NCBI RefSeq assembly: GCF_018977255.1
Contig: NW_024704742.1
Location: forward strand, 20,896,001-20,960,000
Length of the DNA stretch: 64,000 bases
Source: Callorhinchus milii
Lineage: Eukaryota
Direction: 5' to 3'
Shown: piece after piece, positions 11,556 through 62,334 of the stretch
Numbering within the stretch: the first letter of the stretch is position 1
How the letters are laid out: every line of letters starts with the position of its first letter
Position numbers and translations under genes: made by a program
Notes under the pieces: model-generated
Told to the model about the DNA's origin: nothing
Seen by the model: the letters and a program-made list of their open reading frames with translations, nothing else
Databases searched by the model: none

Positions 11556-12522
11556 CAGCGGGTTTAACCTTTTACCTGCTGAGGGCCAGATGCCGAATTT
11601 GAGAAACATTGTAGAACGCATAAGCAATGATTTTGTGTTTCCTTTCCAGAAACAAAATATCACATTTGCACAGCGTCTTTTTCACGTTGGGTGGACATCT
11701 CAAAGCGATTGACACTGCCGGCTGGGCACTCGACCTGGGGAGGGGAAAAGATGACCGAAAGCACAGTCAAAACGTTAGGTCTTGACATGCCTTGAAAGTG
11801 GGGAGGGAGGGACTCCGGAAATGGGAGTACCAGAGAGCGGGGGCAGGGTAGATGGGGTGAGGGTTCATGAATCGAACCGGTGTTTGCTGGGCAATGCAAA
11901 CAGACAGGTTGGGAGATCGCAGAGGTAGGGTGGGGAGGGGGTATGAGGGCCACAGAGGAGTTTCTCATTGGGAGCGAGGAAGTTTTCTGCGAGGAAACTG
12001 CACATTGCTCAGTGTCCGGCTCCCATCATCTGTCTTGGCAGCGAACCATGAAACGCTGCCCTCACTTTCTCTTTCTGCTTCTCCTCCCTCCCTCATGCTC
12101 TCTCTCGCTCTCTCTCCTTCTCTCTCTCTCTCTCAATCACTCTCTCCCCCTCTCTTTCAATCACTCTCCGTCAATCACTCTGCTCTTCCCCTCCACTCTG
12201 TCAATCACTCTCTCGCTCTTTCAATTACTCTCTCATTCTCCCTCTCCCACCCCCTCTCTCTACCCCTCTCTCGTTTCTCCCCCCCTCTCGCCTCTCCCCC
12301 CACCGTCTCACTTTCAATTAGGCTCTCCCCACCCCATCTCTCAATCAGCTGTGTGGCTCACTATCTGGCAGTAGTGAGGTATAGGCAAACCTGTCTCCTT
12401 AGCAACCGCAGCCTCCCGATCGCCAGCTCCTGCCGTTGCCATGACCAGACAGATCGCTGGGGAAGGAGCAGAAATGATTTGCGGGCCAGATGGGGCCTGT
12501 GGGCTGTCAGCTGACCACCCTG
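11556..12522. mobile_element. Non-autonomous hAT (Charlie-like) DNA transposon with a nested L2 3' fragment (about 11650-11950, minus)
   Basis: Termini cag...ctg. Subterminal gagggccagat and gcgggccagatggggcctgtgggc...gaccaccctg motifs. 8-bp TSD gcccaggc (11548-11555) / gtccaggc (12523-12530). Confidence 0.7.
12060..12345. repeat. CT-rich low-complexity tract inside a hAT element
   Basis: Degenerate (ct)n / tcaatcactctc repeats. Confidence 0.85.
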
Positions 12523-15169: not shown

Positions 15170-16903
15170 CAATCTTGGAGGCTAAGGACAACCCCAGGCT
15201 CCTCTTCTCCATCACGAACCAGCTCCTCTCATGCCTCACCCATTCTCACCTCAAAAGCCAACTGTGGGGCGATGCTGGATTTCCTCGAATCCAAAGTCGA
15301 GGGAATCCGCTCAACTGTCTCTGCCGCTGCATCTGCTACTCACTGCCCATCTCCTCCGCCCATCCCAGCCCCCAACCACCACTCCCTCCACACCTTTGAA
15401 CAACAACAACAAAATTACATTTATAGAGCACCCTCTACTCACTGACATCGTAAATCTCTCCCTGTCCACTGGTATTGTTCCCACCCCTTTAAAAAAAAAG
15501 CTGTCATCACTCCTATCGTTAAAAAACCCTCCCTGAACCCTTCTCTACTCCCTAACTACTGCCCCATCTCCAACCTCCCCTTCCTCTCCAAGGTCCTGGA
15601 AAGAGTTGTTGCTTCTCAGCTTTGCTCCTTCCTCTCCCACCACTCCCTTCTCGAACCCTTCCAATTGGGCTTCTGCGCCGCCCACAGCATAGAAACAGCC
15701 CTGGTCAAAGTGACAAATGACATTCTGTCCATCTGCGACCAGAGCTCCCTCTGCCTCCTCGTCCTCCTTGACCTCTCTGCTGCTTTCGACACCGTCGAAC
15801 ACTCTATCCTCATCCACCGCCTCTCCTATGGCGTTCCTCAGGGCTCTGTCCTTGGTCCCCTCCTCTTCAACATCTACACGCTCCCTCTTGGTGACATCAT
15901 CTGCAGACATGGCGTCAACTTCCACGTGTATGCGGATGACATGGAACTCTACCTCTCTGCCTCCAACCTTGACTCCAGGACCACTGCTGTGCTGACAGAA
16001 TGTCTATCAGACATCAAGTCCTGGATGAGAGCTAACTTTCTTCAGATGAACGTCAACAAGACCGAGGCGCTCCTGATTGGCTCCTGTTAGCGCTCCTCAC
16101 CTCAGGCGCTGACAGCATCACCATCCATGGTTGCACACTCCACCTTGCTAAGCCCGTCCAGAACCTTGGGGTCTTGTTTGACCCTCAACTATCCTTTCTA
16201 CCCCACATCTGCACCATGACCCGCTCGGCCTTCCCACACCTCCGCAACGTCGCTCGGCTCCAACATTGTCTCACACCGCAGGCCGCAGAAACCCTCATAC
16301 ACGCCTTCATTACATCGAGGCTCGACTATGTAAACTCACTGCTTGTCGGCCTCTCCAACTCCTCCCTCCAAGGATGTAAATCATCCAGAACTCTGCAGCC
16401 CATGTCCTCTCCAGCACTAGGTTCTGGAACCCTATCACCCCCATCCTTGCCCAACTCCATTAGCTTCCCATCACACAGAGGATACAGTTCAAGATCCTGG
16501 TCCTCACCTTCAAAGCCCTCCATGGTCTTGCTCCCTCCTACCTCTCCGACCTCCTAACCCCCTACCACCCTGTTCGCTCCCTCCGTTCAGCGGGCTCCAG
16601 CCTGCTTCACGTCCCCCGCCTTGCTTACTCCACTATCAGCAGGCGGGCCTTCCGCCACTTTGCACCCACCCTCTGGAACTCCATCCTGCAGTCCCTCCGT
16701 CTCGCCTACTCCCTCGCCACCTTCAAGACCCACCTCAAGACCCTCCTCTTCAACCGTGCTTTCAATTTCCCTGCTTCCCGCCCGCCTTCCACCCTCCCCT
16801 AGCCCCACCCTCAGCTCGGGTCTGTAACTCTGTCTGTCCAGCGCCTTGGGACATCCTCCCGACATGAAAGGCGCTTTACAAATGTAATTTTGTTGTTGTT
16901 GTT
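15170..16903 (+). mobile_element. L2 LINE 3' portion with RT domain (internally deleted and frameshifted)
   Basis: [57 protein letters not shown]. 3' end gacatgaaaggcgctttacaaatgtaattttg(ttg)n. Confidence 0.95.
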
Positions 16904-17989: not shown

Positions 17990-18870
17990 GGAGAGAGAAG
18001 AATGAGTTAACCTTTCAGGTTGATAACCTTTTATCAGAATGGGGCATGTTGGAAGGGAGCAGAATATAAGGACAATAATAATAATAATAATAATAATCCT
18101 TGCATTTGATATAGCGCTTTTCACGTCGGGTGGACGTCCCAAAGCGCTTCACAGAACACACTGTAAAGTGAATTGACTGTATATTTGTGGGCGAACGTGG
18201 CAGCCAATTGCGCACAGCAATGTCCCACAAACAGTCGTAGATTGAAAATGACCAATTTATTATTCTTTTGTTTTTTTGGAGGGATTATTATTGTTATTAT
18301 TATTATTGGACAAGCAGAGAAGGGGGCAGGAAAAGAAAGACAAAGGAAAAATTTAAGTGGGGGGACGGAAGATGACAAGGTCAGAGATGTCATGGTGCAA
18401 GACAAAAGAAGCCAATAGTGGGAGATTACAGAAAGAAAAGATACATCTAAGACCCAGAGGATGTGTGAATCATTATAGAAGCGGTGGAGGGCGGCAGAGA
18501 GAAGATGTGATTTAAGATCTGAAGTGGTTGAAATCAATGTTGAGGCCACAGGACTGTAAGGTGCCTTGGAGGTAGATGAAGTGCTGTTCTTCGAGTTTGC
18601 ATTGTGCTTCATTCGAAAAGCGTAGGAGGCCACGGACAGAGAGGTCAGAGTGGGAGTGGGAAGGAGAATTAAAGTGGCAAGCAACCGGAAGCTCAGGGTT
18701 GCACTTGCACATGGAACGGAGGTGTTTGACAAAGCCATCACCCAATCTGTGCTGTATGACCTGCTGAGTGTTCGGGGCGAGTTCTGTTTTTGTACCCAAT
18801 CTGTACTTGGTCTCCCCGATGTTCAGTTGTATTCTGCAATGGAAAGCTGCGATCATCTATGAAACGCTGT
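17990..18870 (-). mobile_element. Penelope-like element 3' part (GIY-YIG endonuclease C-terminus plus terminal repeat), interrupted by a SINE at about 18072-18307
   Basis: NIGETKYRLG..DGFVKHLRS..PVACHFNSPSHSHSDLSV.GL..KLEEQHFIY..GTLQSCGLNIDF. Hammerhead-like motif at 18004-18040. Confidence 0.85.
18072..18307 (-). mobile_element. SINE 3' half inserted in the Penelope element
   Basis: (aat)n tail and core. Confidence 0.88.
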
Positions 18871-20029: not shown

Positions 20030-20560
20030 TTATTTTACAACCGAGAAGGATGCATCTGGCAGAACTGCCTCAAAACGCACCACAGTTGAAGCGTGCTGAA
20101 ACACCTATCCTTCATAGAGAAATTTCTGAAGAACACCATCTCAGACCCTTGCGCAATTACCAAGCGGTCCCCAGGTAGTTGAAACAGTTAGAAGGGGGAG
20201 AGGGCAGACCCGATCTGGAGTTACCCTGAAGCGACTGCCAGCTACGTCACCGGCCCTGTCCAACAACCATCAGGATGCGGCCTGGCTGGCGATAAAAAGG
20301 GCCTCCCTCTCAGCGCTTCCATGCCAGTCAGCTCTGCCCTCGGACTGGCTGCAGAGGCGAGGTGACCGTGGACCACCTCTTCCTGGAGTGTTGGTACGCG
20401 AAGGCGCTTTGGAAATAGGTACAATGGCTGCTCTCGCGGTTCGTCCCTGGGGATCCGCTGCCACTGCATTCGATGCTACACGGCCTCTGCCCGGGAACTC
20501 ACAGCGAGACCTACATCGAGTGAAGCTGGAGGATCATCAACTCGGTGAAGGAGGCCCTCA
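20030..20560 (+). mobile_element. Tx1-clade non-LTR retrotransposon C-terminal fragment (zf-RVT region), followed directly by an L2 3' end (20560-20762)
   Basis: Frameshifted peptides HLSFIEKFLK, NNHQDAAWLAIKR, CPRTGCRGEVTVDHLFLECWYAKALWK, GLCPGTHSE..WRIINSVKEAL. Confidence 0.75.
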
Positions 20561-21539
20561 CTCCCCGGCGCTTCCGCAATCTACCCCCGGCGCTTCCGCT
20601 CGACTGGCACTGGCCTCCTGCTCGTCCCTCGCAACCTCCGCTCCACCATCACAGATCACACTTTCAGCCACTACGCCCCAAAACTCTAGAACGCCCTGTT
20701 GAGCGCTCTGAGATGCTATCCTGCGTGGAGGGCGCTATATAAGTACAAGTTGTTGTTGTTGTAATGGGCCTGAGATAAGCGCAAATATATATCAACAAAT
20801 AAACATATTTTTTTTAAAACAAATCCTCTCTTCATGGATGCTGCCTGGCCTGCTGTGTGTTCCCAGCGACTTCATCTTTTGTGGCCTTTCATTTCCATGT
20901 GAGAAATTGATTTAACTGAGTTCTACTTCAGCTTTATCTCTTCCTCCTGCCCTCCCTCAGATACCCAAAGTCTAATGATGATCATCTGCAACAAACTGAT
21001 AGAATTTATCTCGGAGCACAATCCATAAGGCATATTAATTCATTAATCCTGCGAGCAAACACACACAATTATACACCACATTATTTCCAGAGAAACCTGA
21101 ATAATCCTGAAGGTCAAGTAAGAGCAACCTAGTTTCCTTGTGTTATACAACGGGCAATTAAAACCATTAGTGCCATACCCTGTGAACAGTATAAACAGGC
21201 AGCAACACACTTCCCTTCCAGGTTTTAAACAATCAGACTATTAAACTAATTATTTTGATGTATAAACCTGAACTCCAATCAGACAACCAGATGTTTACAC
21301 ACCTATCAACCTGTTATTGCTGCTGGTTACACCAAATCAGAAAACACATTTTATTTGTGTCTTCATTCCCATGCAACTGATGTCTAGACTGGAACAGAGC
21401 AGAGAAACCTCACTGCACCCCTCTCTGCTTTAATCCTCAGGAGATTTCTATATACCTGTCACCATTAGGCTTGCACTCCAATGCCTACACTGTATTGCAG
21501 TGTATCATTGTGCTGAGCAGCATTTTTTAATTAATAAAA

Positions 21540-24022: not shown

Positions 24023-26307
24023 GTAGAAAAACGGTTTTGTGGTCACCTCAGTAATCCAGGCACCTCACAATTGCGGAACATTTTCACAGTCTCTTTTATT
24101 GTCCATGTTAAAAGGTGGGTCGTCTGCTTCAGTAAACAGGGCACCTCACTAATCAGGACAACGGTCATTATTGCAGCCGCTGCAGCACCGTTCTCCTGTA
24201 CAAACACCCTCCCCCTCCGCTACTAACCTGTACACAGTGCACTAGGCCTTGAGCTTCTCACGCTGTTTGCTCGGCGCTGCTACTGTGGGAGGAGTGGGCT
24301 CAGTCGCACATGCGCGGCGTGGGCAGTGTTGGGATTGCAGAAGCGACGCGAGCGGGAAATTGACTTCGCCCGGCACCCGCAGCCTAACCTGAGCCCCTGC
24401 AGCCAATTCTTAGTAATTGCTGTAAACATGCCACCACAAAAGGAGTTGTCCTGACATGGGAGAGTGGACTTAATCAAAAACAGTAAAAGTAACCAGTCAT
24501 AGACAGTTAGCTGTGATCTGTGGCATTGGCTCAACACAAGTTGGAATGAATTCTCAAAAGGAAGGCTGAATACATGACAGCTTTTGAACAAACTCAACAG
24601 CCTGATAGAAAACATGCTTGTTTGAACTCTCATTGTAAGGACATTGATAAACTGACATGGGAGTGGTTCCAACATGCCCGTGGTCTCAACATGCCTGTGT
24701 CTGGCCCTAGGATACAGAAGAAAGCACTCAGCTTTGCAGCTTCACTTGGCAAGACTGGCTTCAAGGCATCAAATGACTGGCTTGTACATTTCATGTCCAG
24801 ACACAACATTGGGTCTGCAATTGCGTGTGGTGAAAAGTGTGAAGTTAAGTCTGCTATTGTTGACAACTGGAAGGAGAAACTAACTGAGATTACAGCTGGC
24901 TATGCACCCAAGGACATCTTTAACATGGATGAATCTGGTTGTTTTCAGGGCTCTCCCTGACAGGAGCCTTTCAGTTTGTGGTGATAGCTGCACTGGTGGG
25001 AAGAAATCCAAAGACTGCATCACCATGTCTTTGACAGTCAACACAGAGGGAGATTTTGAACAGACAGCTGTGATAGGATAGGCTGCCACGCTCCATGCCT
25101 TTAGGAATTTAAACATCAAGACTCAGCTTCCCATCTCGTGGTACAGCAACAAAAAGTTATGGATGGCCAGTACCATTTTTATGGAGTGGCTTCAGAACTT
25201 CAATAGAAAGATGCGGGCACAAAGCAGGCATGTGCTGCTGTTTCTGAACAATGTCCTAGCTCACCCTCACAGCATTTCTACAATGTCAAGTTAGTGTTAT
25301 TTCCCAGCTAACACCATATCCATTCTCCAGCCCCTACATCCAGGGCATCACCAAGAATGTCAAGATGCACTACAGGAGGAGTCTTCTACCCATGGTCCTA
25401 GGAGAGATGGCCAAAGGTGTACGGGCTTCACAAGTCGCCAAATCCATCAACGTTCTTTATGCAGTCACCTGGATTCATTCAGCATGGTGCGTAGATCAAC
25501 AGTGCAGAAGTGCTTTGCCAAGGCTGGCTTTAGTGGGATCCGTTACTGTAAAGTGCTCTGAGATGCCACCCAGCGTGGAGGGCACTATATATATCCAAGT
25601 TGTTGTTGTTAGTGTGGATGAGCCTATGGAAGAGGACCCTGATGATAATGTGCCACTTGCCCAGTTGTTGTCTCAGGCCAGTCAGTGCCCGTCAATGGAT
25701 ACCCCTATCCTCAGTGCCGAGGAATATGCAGCCAGTGACAGTGATGTGCCCTCCACTGAGGACTTCAATGTGGGACAGGAGGAGTGTCTAGTGAAGGAGT
25801 TTCTACCAGGGACCAAGGACACTAAGGAACAGGACACACTATAGAAGGAACAGGAAGAGCAACCGACAACATCAAAGAACCTTCTCACTTACGGTGATGC
25901 ACTGGGTTTGTTGGGACAAGTGAAGGACTTTTGCCTTGATCATGGACTCTCCGTGTGGCAGAATTTGGCTGATGCTGAGGTTTAGCTGCAGGCCAAGGCA
26001 GTGCAGGTTAAATCAGCAGCCAAGCAAACAATGCTGGACTCTTTATTCAAGAAATGAACATTTTGTGTGTTTTTATCTTCTCACGTGAACTTTAAATACT
26101 GATCTATTTTAAATGTGACAATGCCTTTATTTTAATGAGATTGCAAAGTATGGTTGTTGAACGTTCATCACCCTTTTCCATTACCAATGCCCGAAACATT
26201 ACGTCAGTGACCTGAATCACCTGAACTGTTTCAGTAATCAGGTCACTTCACCAAGTAGGTCACTTTTGCCCAGTCACTTGAGTGACTGCATTAGTGAGGT
26301 TCTGCTG
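24023..26307 (+). mobile_element. Tigger/pogo DNA transposon relic with a disrupted CENP-B/DDE transposase
   Basis: Frames read WEWFQHARGLNMPVSGPRIQKKA...FKASNDWL...F.SRHNI (HTH) and YAPKDIFNMDESG (start of DDE), with many stops and frameshifts. TA flanks at 24021-22 and 26308-09, degenerate TIRs. It splits a CR1 fragment. Confidence 0.88.
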
Positions 26308-27552: not shown

Positions 27553-29073
27553 CTAAATAATAATGAACTGAGCAATAAAAAGAAAAACTCCAAAATACTG
27601 CAATTCTGAAATAAAAACATGAAAACAGAAAATGCTTCAAATGCACGGAGGGGGGATGGAATCAGTCTGTAGATAAACGACTCTTCATCTTCATCCCAAC
27701 TGAAACAACTTCAGCATTTGCAGTCACTAAGAGAAAACCACTTACTGCCTCTTCTGCAACAGTCACTGAAATAAGATGTAAGAATGTGAATCAACATCAA
27801 ATGACTTCTTAAAAATCAATGAACTAACAGCATAGACACATAGAGATCTACAGTACAGAAGGAGGCCATTCAGCCCAACGATTCTGCACCATCTCACAGA
27901 GCATGGGGATCATTTCAATCCCATCATCCCACCTTATCCATACCCCTCCAAGCCTGGCTGCGCTGTCATCAGAGTTTAGAGATGTGGACCACAACATAAG
28001 GACTAAACACAGCGGAATTTGTTACTACTAAAACATGCAATGAAAGCAACCATGCAGCAATTACACTAAATAGCCAATTATCTACTGCAGTTGCAACCTT
28101 TACACTGCAAAGAGAAATATCGTTCACATCAAAATAAGAAAAATACACAGGGAAAATAAAACACAAAGTCAGTTAGGCAGCAATGTAGAGAAAATATTTT
28201 CACACTCAATTTGTGGGTATTCCTTAAATCACTGCTAAACACAAGCAATGTGTTATGGAATAAGAAACTATATGATCCCTCGGGCATCATTAACCAGCCA
28301 GAAAAAGGATGGTGGGGGGGAGGGGGGTTTGAAACAAAGTCCAATAGCACTCCTGGCTCGACTGTCATCCAATGACTCCTGCTGCACAGTACATGTATAT
28401 TGATTAGGGCGAGGATAGAATTATATTCAGCTTTCACTGTACTGTGAAACAGCCTGCAGACATTCAATGTGTAAACACATCATGTAGATTGGCTACGTGA
28501 GTGAAGTACTGGAAGCTTTTAGACCTGCATACTAGATGGATTGAACGTATTCAGGCGAGGAAGCCAGGAATAGAAGGGAATGAGAAAACTATAAAAAATG
28601 AACCTTACATTCATGCCACACCCTACCATTGCGCCTCCAACCTGGTCGTTAAATTCACTCAGCGAGCACCGGCCTATTTGTTCCACCTCACCATCGGCAG
28701 GCAGCCATCCCAGAGTCCCTCTGCCTCGCACCCTCCCTCCTCCCCTCTTTGAACCTAAGTCTCAAAACGTACCTCTTTGACCACGCTCTCAGGTATCTTT
28801 CCCTTCTCCAACCCCCAATTCAGGTGCTCTCCCAGCACTGAGAATGCGCTCTTGGACACAATATGAAATGGGTTATCTTAAATGTAAAGATTATACATTT
28901 CATTACGTTGTCTTTTTCGATCACAAAATAAGTTAAATATTCCAGAATTGCGGATTTCCACTAATACAAAATCAATATTGTGTCTACTGGATAGAACTAC
29001 TCATTCAAACAAATTTCAAGAAAAACAATATCAGGAAATTTGTTCATAAAACTTCTCTGCAATGAACACTCAC

Positions 29074-29702
29074 CTATCTGATGAAGAGTCTTCAGACGAA
29101 GAGCTATCTTCACTTTCCTTTACTTCATTTTCTTCCGCCTCAACCACACCAGCTTGCACAGTAACGAAAACGTGTGAAACGTCCGTGTCCTGCTCGGACT
29201 GTTGCCCCTCTGTATTAGCGCGGTTATGGCATGTCAGCAGTGAGTTTTCAAACGATAACGTCTCCAGTTGGGCAGATACGGTAACCTCCATCTCCTCATG
29301 CTCAGGCACCTGGCTCGGCAAAGGTGCATTGACACCCGTATCAGCACAATTCCCCGAAACGCTGATCTTGTCTGATTTAGCAAAGTCATTCCTATTCTCT
29401 TCAACAGTTTCGGATTGTGTGCAAGACATGTTGCCATTAATTTCACTTGAAGTGCACCGTGGAGAATGAACACCTAGCTGATGCTGAACTTGAGAATCTT
29501 GCTGTTTTGTCAAATTAGCAACAGAGGCTAATTCACCTTTGTGTGCCTGAGTGCACGATTCGGCTGCTGGCAGGTCTTCCTGTTCGGCAGCCACATTATT
29601 ATTGCCTTCCATCAGCAAACTGCTTTCTAAGATAATTCCCTTCTCAACCGTGTCTGGCTGTGGAGATAGCTGGATATCTGCGTCAATCCCTTGTTCTGCC
29701 AT
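29074..29702 (-). CDS. NAF1: NAF1 (H/ACA RNP assembly factor) first coding exon, acidic disordered N-terminus; the exon starts at 29720
   Basis: 210-codon ORF with an internal MEVTVSAQLETLSFEN that resembles the mammalian NAF1 N-terminus (MEVVEAAAAQLETLKFN, from recall). Ends in a Ser/Asp/Glu tract. Acceptor ttttgttttccaag at 29721, donor AG|gtgagt at 29074/29073 (phase 2). In-frame TGA two codons upstream of the ATG. Confidence 0.85.
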
Positions 29703-31511
29703 TCTTCATCACCATCAAATCTTGGAAAACAAAAGTGTGGCAATTACAAACACATTCAAACAAGAAACAAACTGTTGCTTTATAAATAGTATTCACTGCA
29801 AAAAAAGGACCATCTTAAGCCCATGACAAAATAATCTTAGATATTTTGTAAAAATGCATGTCATCTTATAGTATCTCATTTTCCTAACCGAAGGCTAAAA
29901 TGCAGGGCTTCGGCTGTAGTATCCATATTCTAAAATGGAATTATGCTATATATAGATACCATGGGAGATTCATACACAACCCATTTGCCCACAAAATAGT
30001 CACTCCACTTTACACCATATCCTATGAGGTGCTTCAAGACATCTCCTGACACGAACGGCACTAAATCAAACGCAAGGATCATTATTATTATTATTATTAA
30101 ATAAGCAACATGCACTTATCTGTGTTTGCAATTAGAAGCACGAGGTGCGAGCATTGAGCAACTCTGTTTAACGTGGTTCTCTGGGTTGCCCTGTAATTCC
30201 ATCATAGCTGGTACCAAATAGTAAATCACATGTAATGAGTGAATTGCATTGACAAAAAGGAAATGTAAGCTGTAGTGTCTGTGCAATTGTCGTCCAAAAC
30301 TCAGCCAGACTATATTACCAAGATTTAAAAAATCAATTAAAAAACATTGAGATCCCATGACACTATTAGAAAAGTTTAAGTTTCTCCCTGTGACCGGACT
30401 ACCAATTCTCCAGATAAAATTTGTTATTCATTTAATAATAATCCTTATATTTGGTGTTGCACCTTTCCAGTCAAGTGGACATCCATATACTGCATATACT
30501 GCATATACTGTATATACTGTATATACTGTAAAGCGGGGTTACTGGGTGTTTTTTGGGCGAACGCGGCAGACAATTTGCAAATCGCAATGTCCCATAAACA
30601 GCAATGGAGTGAATGACCAATTTTATTTGGGGGATTGTTGGCCAGGGAGAAAACTCCCTTCTCTTTACAAATTGTGCCATGGATCCACCTGATCAGGTAG
30701 ACAGGACCTCAGTTTAATGCCTCATCCAAAGGATATTGTTGTGTGAAACTGGCTGCCATGTTGACCTACAAATATAAAATCTTGTGCAGTGCTTGGTGCT
30801 GTGGAATCAATGTAAAATGGGAATCTCATACAGACTGCTTCCAAACTCTAGCAAAATCAATTATAGCCTGATGAAGAATGAAAAGTTTGATAGAACCAGC
30901 AAACAGCAAGTGTGAGACATTGATTAAAAACTGTGTGGTCTTGCCAGTACGAGGCTCCTCAGACAATATTGCAGAACATTTCCTTGAAGCAGTTTATTTA
31001 AGACAGAAGACTTCCATCAGGATATCTTGATTGAACAACTGAACATTTACAGCTAGCAAACCAATGTTCCCTGACTGAGAATGAGATGAACTGGGCTGCA
31101 TTGATTAACACTTTCATCACGAAATGGAACCCAACAAAATGCAAACATTTAGTAACAATCCCCAAATCAGAAGCAATGAGGACACTCCACTCAATACAAA
31201 CTGGACCTGTGTGTATCTCTCTCTATATACTTCTCTCTGTGAATCACTGTCGCTCTCTCTCTCTGCACTCTCTCTCTCTCCCCGCATCTCTCTCTCTCTG
31301 CGTGTGTATTACACTATCTGTATCTCTCTTCCTCTTCACATCACTTTCTCTCTATATCGCTGTCTCTTTGTGTATATCACTCACTGTGACTATCACTCTC
31401 TATCTCTCTGTGTATCTCACTCTCTCCCTGTATCTCATTCTCTCGCTCTCTCTGTTTATCTCTCGCGCTCTCACTCACTTTTGCTCTGCGTGTCTTTCAC
31501 TCTCTCTCTCT

Positions 31512-31858
31512 GTGTAGCTCAGCGGTTAGAGCACCCGCCTCGCAAGCGAGAGACCTGAGTTTGTTTCCCGGCAGGGTGAAATACTGGGCAAGTTTCCTTA
31601 CTTCACACGCTTCCATTTACCTAGTAGTATGTATGTAGGAACCCGGTTGTTATTCGATTGGCAGATTGCTTTTCCAGGGATAATTCCTTAAAAAAAAATT
31701 GGTCACTTCAATTGTTTGTGGGACACTGCTGTGAGCAATTGGCTGCTGATCTCGCCCACAAAATATGCAGTCAATTCACTTTACAGTATGTTCTGTGACG
31801 AGTCTTGAGACGTATCGAAAATGTGATAAGACGCTATATCAAAAACAAGTATTATTAT
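31512..31858 (+). mobile_element. SINE, longer subfamily with CGC anticodon-like loop
   Basis: gtagctcagcggttagagcacccgcctcgcaagcgagagacctgag... Confidence 0.82.
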
Positions 31859-32477
31859 CTCACTCTCTCCCACTGTGTGTATCTCTATCTCACCGTGCAT
31901 ATCACTCTCTCTCTCTATCTCATCATGTGTTTCACTCATTCTCTTTCAGTGTGTTTCTCTCTCTCACTTTATGTATCACTCACACCTTCTCACACTGTAT
32001 CACTCACTCAGTCACTCTCCCGCACCCTGTGTATCACTCTCTCTCTGCGTATCACTCAATCGCTCTCTCTCACACTGTGTGTGTGTCTACCTCCATGTAA
32101 GTGTACCTATCTCTGTGTGTGTGTGTGTCACTGTGTGTTTGTGTGTATCACTGTGTTTGTGTATCACTGTGTGTGTGTATATATCATAGTGTGTATCATT
32201 GTGTGTGTGTGTATCATTGTGTGTATCACTGTGTTTGTGTATCACTGTGTGTGTGTATATATCATAGTGTGTATCATTGTGTGTGTATCACTGGGTGTAT
32301 CAATGAGTGTGTTATCACTGTGTGTGTATGTATCACTGTGTATGTATATATCGCTGTATGTGTAACTGTGTGTATAACTCTCACCTCTCACTGTGTGTGT
32401 ATATCACTGTGTGTGCATAACTCTCACCTCTCATGTGTGTATGTGTATATCACTGTGTGTATATCATTGTATATCAC

Positions 32478-33035
32478 AGAATGTCTGTCAGACATCAAAT
32501 CCTAGATGAGAGCTAACTTTCTTCACATGAACAAGACCGAAGCTCTCCTGATTGACTGACAACATCACCATCCATGGTTGCACACTCCACCTTGCTAAGC
32601 CAGTCCAGAACTTTGGGGTCTTGTTTGACCCTCAACTATCCTTTCTACCCCACATCTGCGCCATGACCCGCTCTGCCTTCCCCCACCTCCGCAACGTTGC
32701 CCGGCTCCGACATTGTCTCTCACCGCAGGTCACCGAAACCCTCATACACGCCTTCATTACATCGAGGCTCGACTATGTAAACTCACTGCTTGTCGGCCTC
32801 TCCAACTCCTTCCTCCACAGGCTGCAGATCATCCAGAACTCTGCAGCCGGTGTCCTCTCCAGCACTAGGCTCCAGGACCCTATCACCCCCATCCTTGCCC
32901 AACTCCACTGGCTTCCCATCACACAGAGGATACAGTTCAAGATCCTGGTCCTCATCTTCAAAGCCCTCTACGGTCTCGCTCCCCCCTACTTCTGCGCCTC
33001 CTAACTCCTACCATCCTGTTCGCTTTCTCCGCTCA
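32478..33035 (+). mobile_element. L2 fragment, same subfamily as 15995-16590
   Basis: ETLIHAFITSRLDYVNSLLVGL...LQIIQNSAA...LHWLPI. Confidence 0.93.
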
Positions 33036-33467
33036 GTGTATTAATGTGTGTGTGTATCACTGTGTGTGTGTATATCACTGTGTGTACATGTGTATCATGT
33101 GTGTATGTATCACGTTGTGTGTATAACTCTCACCTCTCACTGTGTGTGTATCACTGTGTGTGTGTGTATCACAGTGTGTGTGTGTATCACTGTGTGTGTA
33201 TCATGCTGTATGTGTATCACTATGTGTGTGTGTATATCAGTGTGTGTGTGTATCGCAGTGTGTGTGTAACTCTCACCTCTCACTAAGTGTGTATATCATT
33301 GTGTGTGTATATCAGTGTGTGCATTATTGTGTGTGTGTATCATGGTGTGTATCAGAGTGTATTAATGTGTGTGTGTATCACTGTGTGTGCATGTGTATCA
33401 TGGTATGTGTGTATCCAGTGAGTGTGTATATCAGTGTGTGTTTGTGTATCATGGTGTTTGTGTATCA

Positions 33468-34116
33468 CCCCTCACGCTGCTGAAACCCTGGTTTACGCCT
33501 TTATCACCTCAAGGTTGGACTATGGGAACTCTCTCCTCGCCGGCCTTCCCGGCACCTCCCTCCACAAGCTGCAGGTCATTCAGAACTCTGCAGCTCGTGT
33601 ACTGTCCCGCACCAGGCTTCGGGACCACATCACTCCCACCCTCGCTCGCCTCCACTGGCTCCCATCCCCCAGAGGATTGATTTCAAGATCCTCATCCTCA
33701 CCTACAAGGCCATTCACGGCCTCGCTCCCTCCTACCTCTCTGACCTACTATCCCCCTACCTACCTGCCCGTACCCTCCCTTCCTCTGGCTCCGGTCTGCT
33801 CCACGTCCCCGCCCCAATCGCCCTACCATCGGTGGTCGGGCCTTCAGCCTCTCAGCCCCCAGGCTCTGGAACTCCATCCCCCAGTGCCTTCGCCGCCTCC
33901 TCCCTTTCCTCCTTCAAGGCCGGTCTCAAAACCTTTCTCTTTGACCGAGCCTTCAGCTCCCCTCTCGACTCTCTTCCCCTCCTCGCTCCCTCCCTTCCCT
34001 CCCCTCACCCTGACCATTTCCCCCTGCTCGGGTCATGACCCAACTGTGCAGCGCCTTGGGACGTCCTCCTGACGTGAAAGGCGCTTTATAAATGGAATCT
34101 TGTTGTTGTTGTTGTT
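33468..34116 (+). mobile_element. L2 3' fragment with (TTG)n tail
   Basis: AFITSRLDYGNSLLAGLP...LHWLP, then gacgtgaaaggcgctttataaatgg. Confidence 0.93.
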
Positions 34117-34137
34117 GTGTGTGTGTGTATCACTGTC

Positions 34138-35220
34138 TCGTGCAGTGTTCCTCAGGGCTCTGTCCTCGGACCCCTCCTCTTCACCCTCTACATGCTCCCC
34201 CTTAGTGACGTCATCTGCAGACATGGGGTAAATTTCCACATGTATGTGGATGACACCCAACTCTATCTCTCTGCCTCCACCCTCAACTTCAGGACTACTG
34301 GCGTCCTGACCGACTGCCTGTCCAACATCAAGTCCTGGATGAGGGACAACTTTCTCGAACTCAATGTAAGACCGAGGCCCTCCTGATTGGCTCACGCCAG
34401 CACCTCCGCACCTCAGGCGCTGGCAGCATCAGCCTCCACGGCTGCACCTCAACCTCACTAAGCCAGTCAGGAACCTGGGTATCTTGTTTGTCCCTGAACT
34501 GTCCTTTCTCTCCCATATTCGCACCATGACTGGCACTGCCTACCACCACCTCCGCAATATTGCCAGACTCCGCCACTGCCTCACCCCTCAGGCTGCCGAA
34601 ACCCTCACCCACGCGTTCGTCACCTCACGGCTCGATTACAGGAACTCCCTCCTCATCGGCCTTCCCAACGCTTCCCTTCACAAACTGCAGATCATCCACG
34701 AGCTCTGCAGCTCGTGTACTCTCATGCAACAGGCTCCGTGACCCCATCACTCCCACCCTCGCCCGACCCCACTGGCTCCCCATCCCCCAGAGGATCGAGT
34801 TCAAGATCCTCGTCCTCACCTTTAAGGCCATCCATGGCCTTGCCCCCTTCTACCTCTCTGACCTGCTGACTCCCTACCAACCGGCCCACTCCCTCCATTC
34901 ATCAGGCTCCGGTCTGCTCCATGTCTCCCGCCCGACCCGCTCTACCATCGGTGGCCGGGCTTTCAGCCTCTCTGCCCCCACACTCTGGAACTCCATCCCA
35001 TGGTCCCTTCACCTCGCTTCCTCCCTTGCCTCCTTCAAGGCCGGTCTCAAGAACCTTATCTTTGATCGTGCCTTTGATCGCTCTCCCACCTCTCTGCCTT
35101 CCCTCTCCCCTACACCACCCCTCCCCCATGCTCGGGCCCCGACACCTGACTGTTCAGCGCTTTGGAAAGTCCTCCTGACGTGAAAGGCGCTCTATAAATG
35201 TAATTTTGTTGTTGTTGTTG
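34138..35220 (+). mobile_element. L2 3' fragment with (TTG)n tail
   Basis: [20 protein letters not shown] through to the 3' terminal motif. Confidence 0.93.
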
Positions 35221-36350
35221 TATCACGGTGTATGTGTATGTGTATTACGGTGTGTGTGTATATATATCACTGTATGTGTGTATATTAGTGTGTGTTTGTG
35301 TCTATCAGTGTGTGTGTATCACGGTATGTGTGTGTATATCAGTGTGTGTGTATCACAGTGTATGTGTGTGTGTATCACGTGTGTGTACATATATATCACT
35401 ATGTGTGTGTGTGTATATCAACGTGTACATCATGGTGTATGTGTGTATCACAGTGTGTGTATAACTCTCACCTCTCACTGTGTGTGTGTATATCATTGTA
35501 TGTGTATATCAATGTGTGCATTATTGTGTGTGTGTGTATCACAGTGTGTATGTATATCATTGAGTGTATGTATCACAGTGTGTGTGTATATCACTCCGTG
35601 TGTGTGTGTATCACGGTGTGTGTGTATATCACTCCGTGTGTGTGTATCACGGTGTGTGTATATCACTCCGTGTGTGTGTATCACGGTGTGTGTGTATATC
35701 ACTGTGTATGTGTGTATATCACTGTGTGTGTGGGTATCAGTTTATGTGTGTATCAGTGTGTGAGTGTATCACAGTGTGTGTGTGTGTGTCACGGTGTGTG
35801 TGTGACGGTGTGTGTGTGGGTCTGTGTCACGGTGCATGTGTGTGTGTGTGGGTCTGTGTCACGGTGTGTGTGTGTGTGATGGTGTGTGTGTGTGTGTGAT
35901 GGTGTGTGTGTGGGGGTCTATGTCATGGTGTGTGTGTGGGTCTGTGTCACGGTGTGTGTGTGTGACGGTGTGTGTGTGTGTGACGGTGTGTGTGGGTCTG
36001 TGTCACGGTGTGTGTGTGTGTGACGGTGTGTGTGTGACGGTGTGTGTGACGGTGTGTGTGTGTGTGATGGTGTGTGTGTGTATGACGGTGTGTGTGGGTC
36101 TGTGTGATGGTGTGTGTGTGTGTGTGTGACGGTGTGTGTGTGTGTGTGACGGTGTGTGTGTGGGTCTGTGTCACGGTGTGTGTGTGTGTGTGTGACGGTG
36201 TGTGTGGGTCTGTGTGACGGTGTGTGTGGGTCTGTGTGACGGTGTGTGTGTGTGTGTGTGTATGTGACGGTGTGTGTGTGTGACGGTGTGTGTGTGGGTC
36301 TGTGTGACGGTGTGTGTGTGGGTCTGTGTGACGGTGTGTGTGTGTGTGTA
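35220..36350. repeat. GT-rich compound satellite (tatcac/gtgt units grading into gtgtgggtctgtgtcacggtgtgt/gtgacg units)
   Basis: Direct inspection. Confidence 0.95.
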
Positions 36351-36358
36351 ACACTCAC

Positions 36359-36480
36359 CTCTCACGCGGTCGGTCCCGGTCCACACGCGGCGTCGCTCGG
36401 GGCGCACGTCGTAACGTCACACGCAAACGCCCCGTCACACAGGTGGTGGGAGGAGGCAGGAGGCGGCGCGCGCACCTCCC
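36359..36480 (-). other. NAF1: Probable non-coding first exon of NAF1 (transcription start not determined)
   Basis: Consensus donor GAG|GTGAGT at 36359/36358 at the edge of a CpG island, in the correct orientation 6.6 kb upstream of the first coding exon. No ATG in this segment. Confidence 0.6.
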
Positions 36481-36720
36481 GCGTCACAGTGACGGCCTCG
36501 TTGCCGGCGCGCGGGGCCCGAGAGTGACGCGTACAGTGGGGGCCGCGCCTCCAGAGCACAGCACAGCGCAGCGGCCCTGTGCCCGGGGGGAGGGCACAGC
36601 ACAGCGGCCCTGTGCCCGGGGGGAGGGGAGAGCACAGCACAGCGGCCCTGTGCCCGGGGGGAGGGCACAGCACAGCGGCCCTGTGCCGGGGGGGGGGGGA
36701 GGGGAGCAGCCGGAAACAGC
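36360..36720. promoter_or_regulatory. CpG island / NAF1 promoter
   Basis: Densest CpG/GC-rich unique stretch in the window (cgcggcgtcgctcggggcgcacg..., ggcggcgcgcgc), with several CGTCAC/GTGACG CRE-half-site-like motifs. Confidence 0.75.
36557..36705. repeat. GC-rich VNTR, about 4 x 30-38 bp (cacagcacagcggccctgtgccc-Gn-aggg)
   Basis: Four visible tandem units with variable G-runs. Confidence 0.9.
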
Positions 36721-36796
36721 ACTGTGATTAACAGACAACAACAACAACGACATTACACTTGTAAATTGCCTTTCACGCCAAGAGGTTGTCCCGAGG

Positions 36797-37565
36797 CACA
36801 GACACACACACACACCGTGACACAGACCCCCACACACACCATCACACACACACACCGTGACACAGACCCCCACACACCGTCACACACACACACCGTGACA
36901 CAGACCCCCACACACACACCGTGACACAGACCCCCACACACACACCGTGACACAGACCCCCACACACACCGTGACACAGACCCCCACACACACCATCACA
37001 CACACACACCGTGACACACCCCCACACACACCGTCACACAGACCCCCACACACACACCGTGACACACCCCCACACACACCATCACACACATACCGTGACA
37101 CAGACCCCCACACACACCGTCACACAGACCCCCACACACCGTCACACAGACCCCATCACACAGACCCCCACACACACCGTCACACAGACCCCCACACACC
37201 GTCACACAGACCCCATCACACAGACCCCCACACACACCGTCACACAGACCCACACACACCATCACACACACACACCGTGACACAGACCCCCACACACACA
37301 CCGTGACACAGACCCCCACACACACCGTGACACAGACCCCCACACACACCATCACACACACACACCGTGACACACCCCCACACACACCGTCACACAGACC
37401 CCCACACACACACCGTGACACACCCCCACACACACCATCACACACATACCGTGACACAGACCCCCACACACACCGTCACACAGACCCCATCACACAGACC
37501 CCCACACACACCGTCACACAGACCCACACACACCATCACACACACACACCGTGACACAGACCCAA
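36797..37565. repeat. CA-rich minisatellite (cacaccgtgacacagacccccaca), the reverse complement of the array at about 35790-36350
   Basis: Direct inspection of the units. Confidence 0.95.
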
Positions 37566-38062
37566 GGAGGACGCTGGGGTGTCAGGACCCGAGCATGGTG
37601 GGGGGGGGGGGTGGGTGTAGCGGGGCAGGGTTGGGATGAGGGAGGGCACGGAGCGGGCGGGGGAGGGAGGCCGAATGCATGGTCAAAAAGGAGGGTCTTG
37701 AGTCGTACCTTGAAGGAGGCGGGAGGGAGGGATGGAGGGAGCGAGGTGAAGGGATTGTGGAATGGAGTTCCAAAGCGTGGGGCCAGAGAGACCTGGAGCA
37801 GGCCAGAGCCCGCTGAACGGAGGGAGCGGACGAGCTAATTGGGGATCAGCAGGTCAGAGATGCAGGAGGAGGCGAGGCCAGGGAGGTCTTTAAAGTTGAG
37901 GACCAGGATCTTGAACTGTATCATCTGATGGGGAACCAGTGGGCGAGGGCGGGTGTGATGGGGTCACGGAGCCTGGTGCGGGAGAGGACACAAGCTGCAA
38001 AGTTCTGGATGATCTGCAGCTTGTGGATCGAAAAGTTGGGGAGGCCGGAAGGAGGGAGTTTC
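37562..38062 (-). mobile_element. L2 3' fragment
   Basis: Reverse complement of the L2 C-terminal/3' UTR region. Confidence 0.85.
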
Positions 38063-38828
38063 CGTCGTCAAGCCGCTGAAACGCTGGTCCATGCCTTTGT
38101 CACCTCTCGGCTGGACTATTCAAACGCCCTCCTCGCTGGTCTCCCATCCACTACCATCCATAAAATCCAACTCATTCAGAATTTAAACAATAATAAATTG
38201 GTCATTTTCAATCTACGACTGTTTGTGGGACATTGCTGTGCGCAATTGGCTGCCGCGTTCGCCCACAAATATACAGTCAATTCACTTTACAGTCTATTCT
38301 GTGAAGCGCTTTGGGACGTCCTCCCGACGTGAAAAGCGCTATATCAAATGCAAGGATTATTATTATTATTATTATTAACTGCAGCCGCAATTCTCACCCG
38401 CACGAAACTCCGCTTCCCGATCACCCCAGTCCTCGCCAGACTCCACTGGCTGCCTATCCCAGAGAGGATCGATTTCAAGATCCTCACCCTTGTCTTCAAA
38501 TCCCTCCACTCCTCTGCACTCCCTTACCACTCTGACCTCTCTCCTCGGCACAGTACCCGTTGCCTTCGTTCCTCCGGGTCTGGCTCCTCCTTGTCCCCCA
38601 AGTCCTCCGCTCCATCCTCAGCGGCCTTGCCTTCAGCCACTATGCCCCGAGGCTCTGGAACTGCCTTCCTCACTCCCTTCGTCTTGCTCCCTCCCTTCCC
38701 ATTTTCAGGTCTCTGCTGAAGACCTTTCTTCGACCGCGCCTTTGGTCACCTTCCCACCGCTCCCCCTGGCTCGGTCCCGGGATCCTAAACGTCCAGTGTG
38801 GAGGACGCTATATAAATCCAAGTTGTTG
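38063..38828 (+). mobile_element. L2 3' fragment interrupted by a SINE 3' half (about 38184-38377)
   Basis: [31 protein letters not shown] | SINE | AAAILTRT..LHWLP. Confidence 0.9.
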
Positions 38829-54696: not shown

Positions 54697-55113
54697 TCAA
54701 GCAATCTGTGTTGCTTGTTTCAGAGAGCTCTTGGATATATCTGTCTGCATGGTTGACATGGCGATCGCCTCATAGTCTTCCTCCCTGCGACTGCATTTGC
54801 AGTAACGGAGGATAACATGCAAGTCCCTCTGAAAGTTTTTATTCAGGAATCCATAAAAGACGGGGTTCACGCAGGTTGAGAGCATCGCTGTCAAGTGGCA
54901 TATGGAGAAAATCAGATTATGATGACAATTCGTGATGGCTTCATGCTTCCAGTCAAAAACCGCGTTGAAGATGTTTAGGGGCAGCCAGCAGATTGCAAAC
55001 GCCACCACAATAGAAATCAACATAATGGTAATTCTTCGGTTCTCATCTGCCCGTGACTTGTTCTCCCTCATCTTGTCCATCATGTCATTTCTCCTTTTGA
55101 GGCGTATATATAT
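54697..55113 (-). CDS. NPY1R: Neuropeptide Y receptor Y1, coding exon 2 (ICL3 to C-terminus, 138 aa + stop)
   Basis: Acceptor tctttgaaag|ATA, then IYIRLKRRNDMMDKMRENK...CWLPLNIFN...STCVNPVFYGFLNKNFQRDL...DYEAIAMSTMQTDISKSSLKQATQIA*. The intron position CYLK|IYIR is characteristic of Y1. Spliced CDS is 374 aa. Confidence 0.96.
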   Translation of the reverse strand: MYIRLKRRNDMMDKMRENKSRADENRRITIMLISIVVAFAICWLPLNIFNAVFDWKHEAITNCHHNLIFSICHLTAMLSTCVNPVFYGFLNKNFQRDLHVILRYCKCSRREEDYEAIAMSTMQTDISKSSLKQATQIA

Positions 55114-55657
55114 CTTTCAAAGACAAAACAAAGCAATTTAATCTGGTTAACATGCAACATCTAAGTCTAAGGCCATGTTGTATTACTACTTCCAGAATTC
55201 CTCCAATAAAAATCATTCTGTCAATTTCTCAAACACAAAAGTTTCAGCATGGCTCAGATATTAGCGCTCTTGTCTCTGGATGAGAAGCTTGTGGGTTTAA
55301 ACCGCATGTTAGGACTTAAGCTTGTAGTCTAGGCTGATACTCCAATGCAAATCTTAAGGGTTTGTCAGGGGTTCTGTGGATGAAACATAAAGGTCCTGTC
55401 TGCCTGGTCAGGTGGATGTTAACGATCCAAGTCATTATTTGAAGAGAATGGAGTTTCTTACAATCAACAATCCACCAGAAAAGAATTTGTCGTTCACTTC
55501 ATGGCCATTTTTGGTACATTGCTATGTGCAGATTGGGCGCACCTATAAATATACAGTCACTGCATTCCCCGTGAAGCACTTTGAAACATTTCAATACTGT
55601 ATTCATTCTTTGAAATTCAAGGATTATTGTATAAGGTCATCATTATGGAGTCATTGT

Positions 55658-60950: not shown

Positions 60951-61626
60951 ACACTAGCAGGATCTTTTCAATCATGATCATTTTCATACAATTAAACAAA
61001 GTAATATTCATTTTAAAAAAATACATTCATATTAGTTAATATTTTGGACAGCTACTGCTAATACCTTTGGTAATCTATGAAGACTGTTTTGTCAAGATTT
61101 GATTTCCTCCTTCCATCATATCCACTCTGTTCTCTTCCAATTAGATCGTCAAATACTTCCTTAAACGTGTCCAGTGACCTAGTCCCAACCACCCTTCCTG
61201 ATAACTAGTTCCAGTTGCTGATCACCCTCTGTGTAAAAAAATACTCGCTTTCCAATCCTGAACAATCTTGTCTTGCTGCACGGACATCATGACAAACTCA
61301 AGGAATATTTCTGGGTTTGCTTTCTCCATCTCATTTAACATCTTATATAATTCTATTTGATCCTTTCTTAGGCACTTACTTACACAGCACTTACTTACAC
61401 TAGTTGTTCTTCGTAGCTCAATGTTCCTAACACTGGGTATGAATCTTTTACCATAACTTACTTTCTTTGCTCATCTGAGAGAAGAAAATGGCCCTTCTGA
61501 TACTGCATCCCATTAAAATATATCTACTATTCAGGAAGCCAGGTACCTGAAAAACTGAACCAGCTTTCACAATGCATGAAATAATCACATTACCAATAAC
61601 ACAAATGAAAGGCTTTTACTATTTAC

Positions 61627-62334
61627 CTTTAAGTAGCAGATGAATATGAAGCAAAGGGGTCCGAAGTACTGCACCACCAGGAGGCATGTGGTGTATGCCA
61701 GCCTTTGGTTTTCCGATGGCCACTGATCCAGACACACGTACTTTCCAGCGAAATTCTCCCAATAGTTGGGCACATTTTGGAGAGGCTCGTCAGTCAAAAC
61801 TTGGAAAAGTAGGAATGGCAGAGATGCGAGCAGTGCCAGCACCCACATGGTGGCAATGCTCACATACGCATGCTTGTTGTTGGGTCTCCAGCCACGGGGA
61901 TTTATTATCAACTGGTGGCGTTCGATGGCAATCAGCACCAAGGAGAAGACAGAGACTGTAATGGAGATACACTGGATCATGGAGTTCATCTTACACATGG
62001 CCTTGCCAAAGACCCAATGATCCATGAAGGTGTAGACAAATGTAAAAGGCAAGCACATGAGAGTAATGAGCAGATCAGAGATGGACAGGTTGACGATGAG
62101 AATGTTGGTGACATTGTGCATTTCCTTCTGTTTCATGATAATGGTGATCAACATCAGGTTACCAGAGACTCCCAGAATGATGACAGCACTGTAAGCCAAG
62201 GCTAATGTGAAAATCACGGCAGTGGGAGCTTGGCAGGGTTCATATTTGTCGAAGTCTAAGAAAGTAAAATTACTTATAGAGAAATTCAAGCGGACGGAAA
62301 GGTTTCCAGCATTAACCCAAGGTGTCCTATCCAT
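61627..62334 (-). CDS. NPY1R: Neuropeptide Y receptor Y1, coding exon 1 (N-terminus to TM5, 236 codons)
   Basis: Translation MDRTPW...GNLMLITIIMKQKEMHNVTNILIVNLSISDLL...MCLPFTFVYTFMDHWVFG...IAIERHQLIINPRGWRPNN...FGPLCFIFICYLK closely matches Y1 receptors. ATG at 62334 is in a strong context (acaATGG). Phase-0 donor AAG|gtaaat at 61627/61626. Confidence 0.96.

Follow-up and report, generated by a model that had tools for sequence, protein, structure and literature searches.

The promoter of NAF1 in Callorhinchus milii lies between two minisatellite arrays that share one unit vocabulary and face each other in opposite orientation. We studied this arrangement in a stretch of 64,000 nucleotides of contig NW_024704742.1 (positions 20,896,001 to 20,960,000, forward strand; hereafter the window), in which NAF1 is encoded on the minus strand. 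The mirror-oriented pair is confirmed as a real feature of this sequence, and its mirror look is probably that of two arrays of common descent. The origin that we favour, and hold to be probable, is a neutral or weak-modifier by-product: an inverted template switch would have carried a few units of the left array (L) into a long interspersed nuclear element (LINE), where they expanded separately into the right array (R). Numbered from the first base of the window, the arrays are as follows.

35774..36349, plus strand: left array L, TG-rich on the plus strand; 28 units, GC about 0.55, 22 CpG; begins 9 nt inside NAF1 intron 1.
36797..37564, minus strand: right array R, CA-rich on the plus strand; 37 units, reverse complement of the L vocabulary; 768 bp.

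The original prediction, which had been made from the letters alone, took the left array to be the reverse complement of the right one, and the unit search bears this out. When the 64-kb window was searched with the pattern GGGTCTGTGTSACGGT, allowing up to 2 mismatches, 51 matches were obtained, 22 on the plus strand (35780-36335) and 29 on the minus strand (36814-37563), and no match was found outside L and R. Shuffled sequences (n = 100) gave a mean of 0.06 matches. The L units combine (GT)n with GACG, CACG, GATG or GGGTCT-GTGT-CACG/GACG, and the composite unit can be written as GGGTCTGTGT(C/G)ACGG. With tandem periods of 18-66 in L and 24-62 in R according to Tandem Repeats Finder, and head-to-tail units of at least 7 bp, both arrays are minisatellites. 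Among the non-simple 16-mers of L, 302 of 506 recur in the reverse complement of R and none in R read forward, the pattern by which an inverted local copy is recognized in templated insertions. The three older TG-rich arrays of intron 1 have almost no such 16-mers in common with the reverse complement of R (1/549, 0/418 and 0/339), and the inverted match of L and R therefore goes beyond simple GT content. Aligned locally, L and the reverse complement of R scored 642 over 537 columns (91% identity, 19 gaps), compared with 76-126 for the older arrays and with maxima of 425, 511 and 516 for Markov simulations of orders 1, 2 and 3, respectively (100 simulations each).

The description of the pair as an imperfect inverted repeat holds for the vocabulary of units that the arms have in common, but not for their order. 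Scores of 642 or more were reached by 338 of 500 unit-order shuffles of R and by 311 of 500 of L, and ungapped arm pairs are 70-78% complementary, with a longest exact match of 37 nt. The arms hold 19 and 14 unit types, of which 2 are common to both in exact form, and an exact twin in the opposite arm exists for 4/28 and 3/37 units. G-run heads in L comprise ten with 3 G and one with 5 G, whereas in R 18 have 5 G, three have 4 G and three have 3 G, two of these last being outermost. R also contains a higher-order duplication of 356 bp (224 nt of it perfect) and a 97-nt perfect repeat at a lag of 274; the longest internal repeat of L measures 44 nt. Since unit order is not shared, the G-head variants are private and the 356-bp duplication is present only in R, the arms are of common unit ancestry and have expanded independently. 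Colinear block duplication of the arms was rejected on the basis of the shuffle test.

L is the GC-rich end of an older satellite of intron 1 and not a free-standing array. Distal to it, with respect to the exon-1 donor, the following elements were identified.

32108..32470, plus strand: O3, the most distal TG layer, with words like GTGTGTATCACT; GC 0.38; donor-region copies at 32380 and 32423.
33036..33468, plus strand: O2, a TG layer between LINE fragments; GC 0.40; donor-region copies at 33129 and 33272.
33465..35220, plus strand: two L2-like LINE 3' fragments that part O2 from O1, with a third at about 32476-33035 (blastn among the copies of the window).
35219..35773, plus strand: O1, GC 0.39 rising to 0.44, with the first CACGG words; donor-region copy at 35467; merges into L with no boundary.

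Towards the donor, GC rises from about 0.37-0.40 to about 0.56 and CpG from 0.3 to 3.8 per 100 bases, while TATCAC is replaced by TGTCAC/TGTGAC and CACTG by CACGG/GACGG. Old words such as GTGTGTGTGTATCAC are 3 substitutions away from the L head, and old 15-mers are 2-6 substitutions away, none of them from G/C to A/T, an absence partly built in by the GC-rich target. The layers O1-O3 further hold five copies, all decayed, of the donor region of NAF1 exon 1 (minus strand, 0.9-4 kb downstream of the true donor), so that repeat growth on the left side took up sequence of the exon-1 edge. All five read GAG/GTGAGA, compared with GAG/GTGAGT at the true donor, and none is present in L or R. Unlike L, R has no older fringe, and its two outermost units are of the L-type 3-G form, with exact L matches of 29-34 nt that resemble a relic of the seed. 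Because L has a graded ancestor, R has no fringe and the outermost R units are L-type, copying would have proceeded from L to R. CT-rich repeats with ATCAC words are found at 31190-32100 and 12069-12301 (74% alike over 113 nt); the former adjoins the TG layers on their distal side and may predate them as a further layer.

R, in turn, is flanked on both sides by LINE sequence.

36735..36796, minus strand: last ~60 nt of the host LINE with its (TTG)n tail; 79-82% identical to the 3' ends of other LINEs.
37561..38075, minus strand: host LINE body with its 3' untranslated region (UTR); 75-78% identical to other copies, with a short overlap with the 36735-36796 piece.

The two flanks, about 60 bases on the left and about 500 bases on the right, are of the same family and on the same strand. 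Against four of five intact LINE copies they map to adjacent 3' parts, as expected where an insertion interrupts an older sequence: measured from the LINE 3' end, the distal flank stops at 55-58 nt and the proximal piece sets in at 71-76 nt, so that the two overlap by 16-20 nt. The R edges (36790 and 37561) carry a direct repeat of 7 nt with one mismatch. At the distal junction the LINE sequence TTGGG shares TGGG with the first R unit, although later turnover may have altered the R ends. One interrupted LINE is the simplest reading of these flanks, and R would be younger than its host because it interrupts it. A related LINE at 15446-16087 bears the Pfam domain RVT_1; we take the family to be L2.

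These observations can be accommodated in three steps. In the first, an old TG-rich satellite would have arisen in intron 1 at the edge of exon 1, would have been broken up by LINE insertions, and would have turned over at its promoter-proximal end into L, a variant richer in GC and CpG; the layers themselves are observed, and we infer their order in time. In the second, copying would have begun at a broken or stalled DNA end within the older LINE 3' UTR, 0.45-1 kb off and beyond the start site. Annealed through microhomology (TGGG) to the CA-rich strand of L, this end would have been extended backward over one unit or a few and then joined to the LINE again, a few bases short of where it had left. 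Here the interruption and the short duplication are observed, and we infer the template switch. The template may have been DNA or nascent NAF1 RNA, which cannot be distinguished because the CA-rich strand is the NAF1 non-template strand and thus has the same sequence as the nascent RNA. In the third step, the seed would have grown by tandem turnover apart from L, fixing the 5-G variant and the 356-bp duplication. The layout would thereby provide a longer CpG-rich region and additional words resembling half of a cAMP response element (CRE), most likely acting as a weak modifier at most. Capture of NAF1 pre-mRNA by the LINE reverse transcriptase at insertion was also considered and is ruled out by orientation, since R would then be TG-rich on the plus strand.

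In microhomology-mediated templated inverted insertions (MMB-TI; PMC8421209) and in foldback insertions at yeast breaks (PMC11724301), nearby sequence is likewise inverted into other sequence, and the junctions show microhomology or a short duplication. The operational rule for MMB-TI places the template within 100 bp (PMC8421209) and the yeast foldback loop measured 41 nt (PMC11724301), whereas the NAF1 template is a minisatellite at least 447 bp off and the insert has since grown to 768 bp. The NAF1 case would therefore work like MMB-TI but fall outside its definition, as the template exceeds 100 bp, and the original insertion event is no longer readable because the minisatellite insert expanded afterwards.

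Several points weigh against this origin of R. The distance of at least 447 bp is beyond both the 100-bp rule and the 41-nt loop. Alignment leaves the junction ambiguous, with overlaps of 7 to 20 nt, and for the fifth LINE copy it broke early and left a gap of 19 nt. Tail-only LINE insertions are common in the window, and the match of the two pieces could be a coincidence between separate elements. No empty LINE site or intermediate allele was found among the sequencing contigs, none of which spans an array, and the donor comparison for R is confined to the 64-kb window. Finally, GC bias linked to recombination, put forward as a driver, did not hold up in a wider test. A/T-to-G/C changes in seven LINE copies numbered 8, 10, 10 and 10 within 3 kb versus 0, 0 and 2 farther away, but a test over all interspersed-repeat columns (2235 near, 5765 far) gave 35/997 versus 88/3008 (p = 0.34), and two other contrasts gave p = 0.72 and 0.89. 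Recombination-linked GC-biased conversion was thus rejected as a driver at the NAF1 promoter, the wider test being negative (p 0.34-0.89). Tandem repeats within human recombination hotspots are described as biased to insertion (PMC7615360). PRDM9 of the elephant shark has been reported as partial and undetected in RNA (PMC5519329). Both reports had pointed to recombination at the promoter as a driver, but the PRDM9 report is not used as support here because the GC-bias test was negative.

The loop between L and R measures 447 bp and comprises ~200 bp of unique core, ~140 bp of a second minisatellite and ~60 bp of LINE 3' end. The original prediction of a loop of about 450 bp formed by promoter and exon 1 is thus right in placing exon 1 there, but the loop is not entirely promoter and exon 1, as it includes the 33-bp minisatellite and the LINE tail.

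36359..36560, no strand assigned: unique CpG-rich core; GC 0.73, observed/expected CpG 1.22, 33 CpG.
36359..36433, minus strand: NAF1 non-coding exon 1, minimum extent; donor GAG/GTGAGT; contigs X4 (36359-36433) and X6 (36359-36420).
29721..36358, minus strand: NAF1 intron 1, 6638 nt, GT-AG; contig ends equal 29691-29720.
36560..36701, plus strand: second minisatellite, unrelated to the first; 33-bp unit, 4 copies, rich in G runs.

Contigs from 4 of 24 sequencing runs aligned over 36345-36810, from which neither strand nor start site can be read. X4 and X6 are RNA-type by the guess of the tool and their contigs are spliced, although no run is recorded as RNA. Both (2/2 runs) splice 36359 to 29720, with an acceptor side equal to 29691-29720 of the window, which places exon 1 within the loop with its donor at 36359/36358 and gives intron 1 its length of 6638 nt. 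The extent given for exon 1 is a minimum, and the absence of RNA-type coverage over 36441-36728 says nothing on divergent transcription. The DNA contigs end at the arrays or barely within them. The core differs among runs at single bases as well, with A>G at 36413 (X2, X6) and at 36419 (X2). T>G at 36532 is found in both DNA-type runs, and the window base may therefore be a rare allele or an error.

As originally noted, the motif of the unit recurs in the core, where CCGTCACACAG is found at 36432, and GTGACG words are enriched in the core as they are in the arrays. The core contains 5 CGTCAC/GTGACG words versus a mean of 0.6 in shuffles, none of 1000 of which reached 5, and its 11-nt match to the unit was attained by 22 of 1000 shuffles (p ~0.02). 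A perfect palindrome, CGTCAC-A-GTGACG, is located at 36482-36494, close to the likely start site. The core and R have 2 of 429 10-mers in common and no 12-mer. The core CGTCAC(AC)n is length-polymorphic, with an additional CA behind 36417 in X2 and X4. With the G-run-rich second minisatellite, the core segment has a G4Hunter-type peak of 2.52, and the minus strand of R has a peak of 1.64. Three kinds of tandem repeat are thus found within 1.3 kb of the start.

A doubtful alternative to the one-way copy is a two-way exchange, in which the GGGTCT head would have been born at the junction of R with the LINE and copied back to L, with repeated unit swaps through pairing of single-stranded DNA. Copies of the LINE 3' UTR do hold GGGTC and CTGTCTGT-like words, GGGTCT has a count of 0 in O1-O3, and L has a single 5-G head. 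The arms also pair as a single strand in computed folding of 36150-37000 (167 arm-arm pairs, -300.6 kcal/mol), and in yeast spaced, diverged repeats that are nearly inert in double-stranded DNA can anneal in long single-stranded DNA (PMC10164571). However, the few exact twins listed above indicate poor homogenization of the arms, and the GGGTCT head can be reached in place from the old words by the same 2-6 substitutions, partly by construction. We also consider it unlikely that R is a member of a dispersed satellite family that arrived from elsewhere and took up the inverted orientation by chance. GT-rich satellites are common in the window, but the unit has no match in it outside the two arrays, and the ancestry of L is graded and local. 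A 23-nt unit word had 0 matches in metagenome contigs, which is uninformative about a vertebrate repeat.

Other readings assign the layout a function. It seems decidedly unlikely that promoter-edge satellites of this lineage seed inverted daughters across start sites, perhaps from the displaced strand or the nascent RNA in transcription, and that the arrays are kept as a two-sided GTGACG antenna that turned a 200-bp core into a 2-kb island. RNAs leaving the promoter either way would then start with the same CA-rich sequence, and satellites would offer a repeat-driven route to building and remodelling CpG-island promoters. That the symmetric arrays are held by selection, as a two-sided factor antenna or as an extension of the CpG island, is quite improbable, although it is compatible with the origin favoured here. 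The enrichment of GTGACG in the core and the 11-nt match would be the best support for such a predicted antenna role. With the arrays included, CpG-island-like windows are almost continuous from ~35800 to 38150, partly over LINE sequence, and a review describes how site-flanking repeats can raise factor occupancy (PMC12815392). However, the arrays hold 16 + 10 TGACG half-sites and no full CRE. Moreover, GTGACG is contained in the CRE word GTGACGTCAC that is common in promoters (PMC4555227), so that its presence in the core needs no link to the satellite. The 14 units that carry GATGG look decayed, GATGG being the expected methyl-CpG decay product of GACGG if these words derive from it.

The original prediction also proposed that the satellite grew outward from the CGTCAC motif of the promoter in both directions, which we regard as very improbable. 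It can draw on the 11-mer CCGTCACACAG at 36432, on the length polymorphism of the core CGTCAC(AC)n and on the donor-region copies in the intron satellite, by which repeat growth on the left did take up sequence of the exon-1 edge. On the right, however, R lies inside the LINE, ~240 bp off the core and parted from it by a minisatellite and a LINE tail, and its sharing of 10-mers with the core is as slight as stated above. On the left, the L words derive from the older satellite by a few substitutions, GTGACGG being one substitution from GTCACGG inside the L lineage. An assembly artefact of fold-back (chimeric) long reads is hardly credible because the arms carry their own variants and an unshared unit order where a near-perfect colinear mirror would be expected, and because the flanks are not mirrored, even though no contig spans an array and the X1 contig, which crosses the junction of the LINE with R, has just 14 letters compared within the array; X1 is possibly the sample that was assembled.

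Of the consequences that had been suggested for the pair, complementary divergent transcripts are not supported. Both outward RNAs read the CA-rich strand of the inverted repeat and are therefore of the same sense, and their computed duplex of -20.6 kcal/mol falls inside the shuffled range (mean -17.6, best -28.7, n = 20), while a read-through RNA over both arms would pair at -462.9 kcal/mol. A cruciform is unlikely as well, since the spacer of 447 bp is not short and the diverged arms are not near-identical; in yeast, lengthening the spacer from 12 to 20 bp lowered recombination about 40-fold (PMC10164571). As to the suggested Z-DNA, alternating runs measure up to just 20 nt in L and 14 nt in R, hardly longer than the 13-15 nt of the old layers. 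An inversion of the promoter found no support either, as no arm halves are swapped and both RNA-type contigs have exon 1 in the reference orientation. NAF1 has been described as indispensable in the maturation of H/ACA particles (PMC6443650). If an inversion occurred, it would point exon 1 away from NAF1. Recombination between the arms would in this respect resemble that of the F8 int1h pair, which we take to be an intron-1 inverted repeat with one copy outside the gene. Unlike such near-identical kilobase duplicates, however, the NAF1 arms are short, diverged minisatellites, and no inversion was found.

Comparison with other described repeats places the pair close to several of them. In human, minisatellites of the variable number tandem repeat (VNTR) type show enrichment around start sites and around CpG islands (PMC8096271), and the NAF1 arrays share with promoter-proximal VNTRs their short units, their location less than 1 kb from the start, factor-like motifs and CpG; they differ in having one unit family on both sides of the start in opposed orientation. 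Like the 'mirage' minisatellites of amphioxus (PMC3087553), the NAF1 satellite contains extra copies of an exon-intron boundary, namely five of the exon-1/intron-1 boundary, and normal splicing is kept, 2/2 RNA-type runs using the true donor (the copies lie outside the aligned stretch). In contrast to the mirage repeats, these copies are scattered among GT-rich units, split by LINEs and not the unit itself, all five read GTGAGA instead of GTGAGT, and neither L nor R contains any. Inverted tandem-repeat arms around a middle domain are likewise a feature of foldback transposons such as Tetris (PMC4079207), but the NAF1 pair has no unique terminal domain and no target duplication of 8-10 bp. Comparison of its outer ends (35755-35800 versus 37555-37600) gave just 7-8-nt matches with one mismatch, mostly of GT type and none in register at the edges. 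Its termini are not discrete, as L merges into O1 and the host LINE continues on both sides of R, in the loop and beyond, and the 64-kb window contains no second copy of the pair. A foldback transposon is thus ruled out by the missing target duplication and the indistinct termini. A literature search of titles and abstract openings, partial in its coverage, returned no inverted minisatellite pair around a promoter and no repeat at a fish NAF1 promoter.

If the favoured explanation is true, the NAF1 locus would provide an unusually readable birth of a minisatellite from an inverted copy of its neighbour, in which the host LINE marks the point of insertion, the parent array keeps the older layers and the arms record their separate turnover. 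It would also mean that mirror symmetry at a promoter can arise without selection, which calls for caution in inferring function from layout. The evidence comes from a single locus, and any function of the layout is hypothetical. The finding would matter more if mirror pairs proved common at promoters of C. milii, or if the arrays were unmethylated and bound, because tandem-repeat turnover would then be tied to the evolution of CpG islands.

The name NAF1 given to the gene in the original prediction is confirmed by homologue matches.

29073..29720, minus strand: NAF1 exon 2, the first coding exon; ATG at 29702, acceptor AG at 29722-29721; 3' end approximate.

In tblastn comparisons, exon 2 matched the NAF1 proteins of two sharks (P0001 and P0002) with 51% and 48% identity, respectively, over residues 1-195. 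The homology spans 29702-29124, and a further exon at 17533-17444 has 77% identity (two sharks). The exon of the NAF1 core domain was not found by a motif search of the window, and Pfam assigned no family to exon 2. Exon 2 also contains the start of an upstream open reading frame of 10 codons (29715-29683, minus strand), which has two ATGs in frame and runs over the NAF1 ATG in a different frame; it could dampen NAF1 translation.

Further elements were observed in the window. The 3' end of a retroelement of another family (20100-20762, plus strand), with a LINE-like tail containing (TTG)n, forms the second most CpG-rich patch of the window. A frame at 18515-18856 (minus strand), which had no Pfam match, presumably resembles the GIY-YIG endonuclease of Penelope-type elements. 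A NAF1 intron contains a broken DNA transposase of pogo/Tc5 type at 24550-25841 (plus strand; Pfam HTH_Tnp_Tc5, 3e-16; DDE_1 weak and below the cut-off).

54697-55116 and 61585-62334, minus strand: two coding exons of a rhodopsin-family receptor; Pfam 7tm_1.

From its sequence and synteny, we take this receptor at ~54.7-62.6 kb to be NPY1R. It is located ~18 kb past the NAF1 promoter on the same strand as NAF1, both genes of the window thus being encoded on the minus strand.

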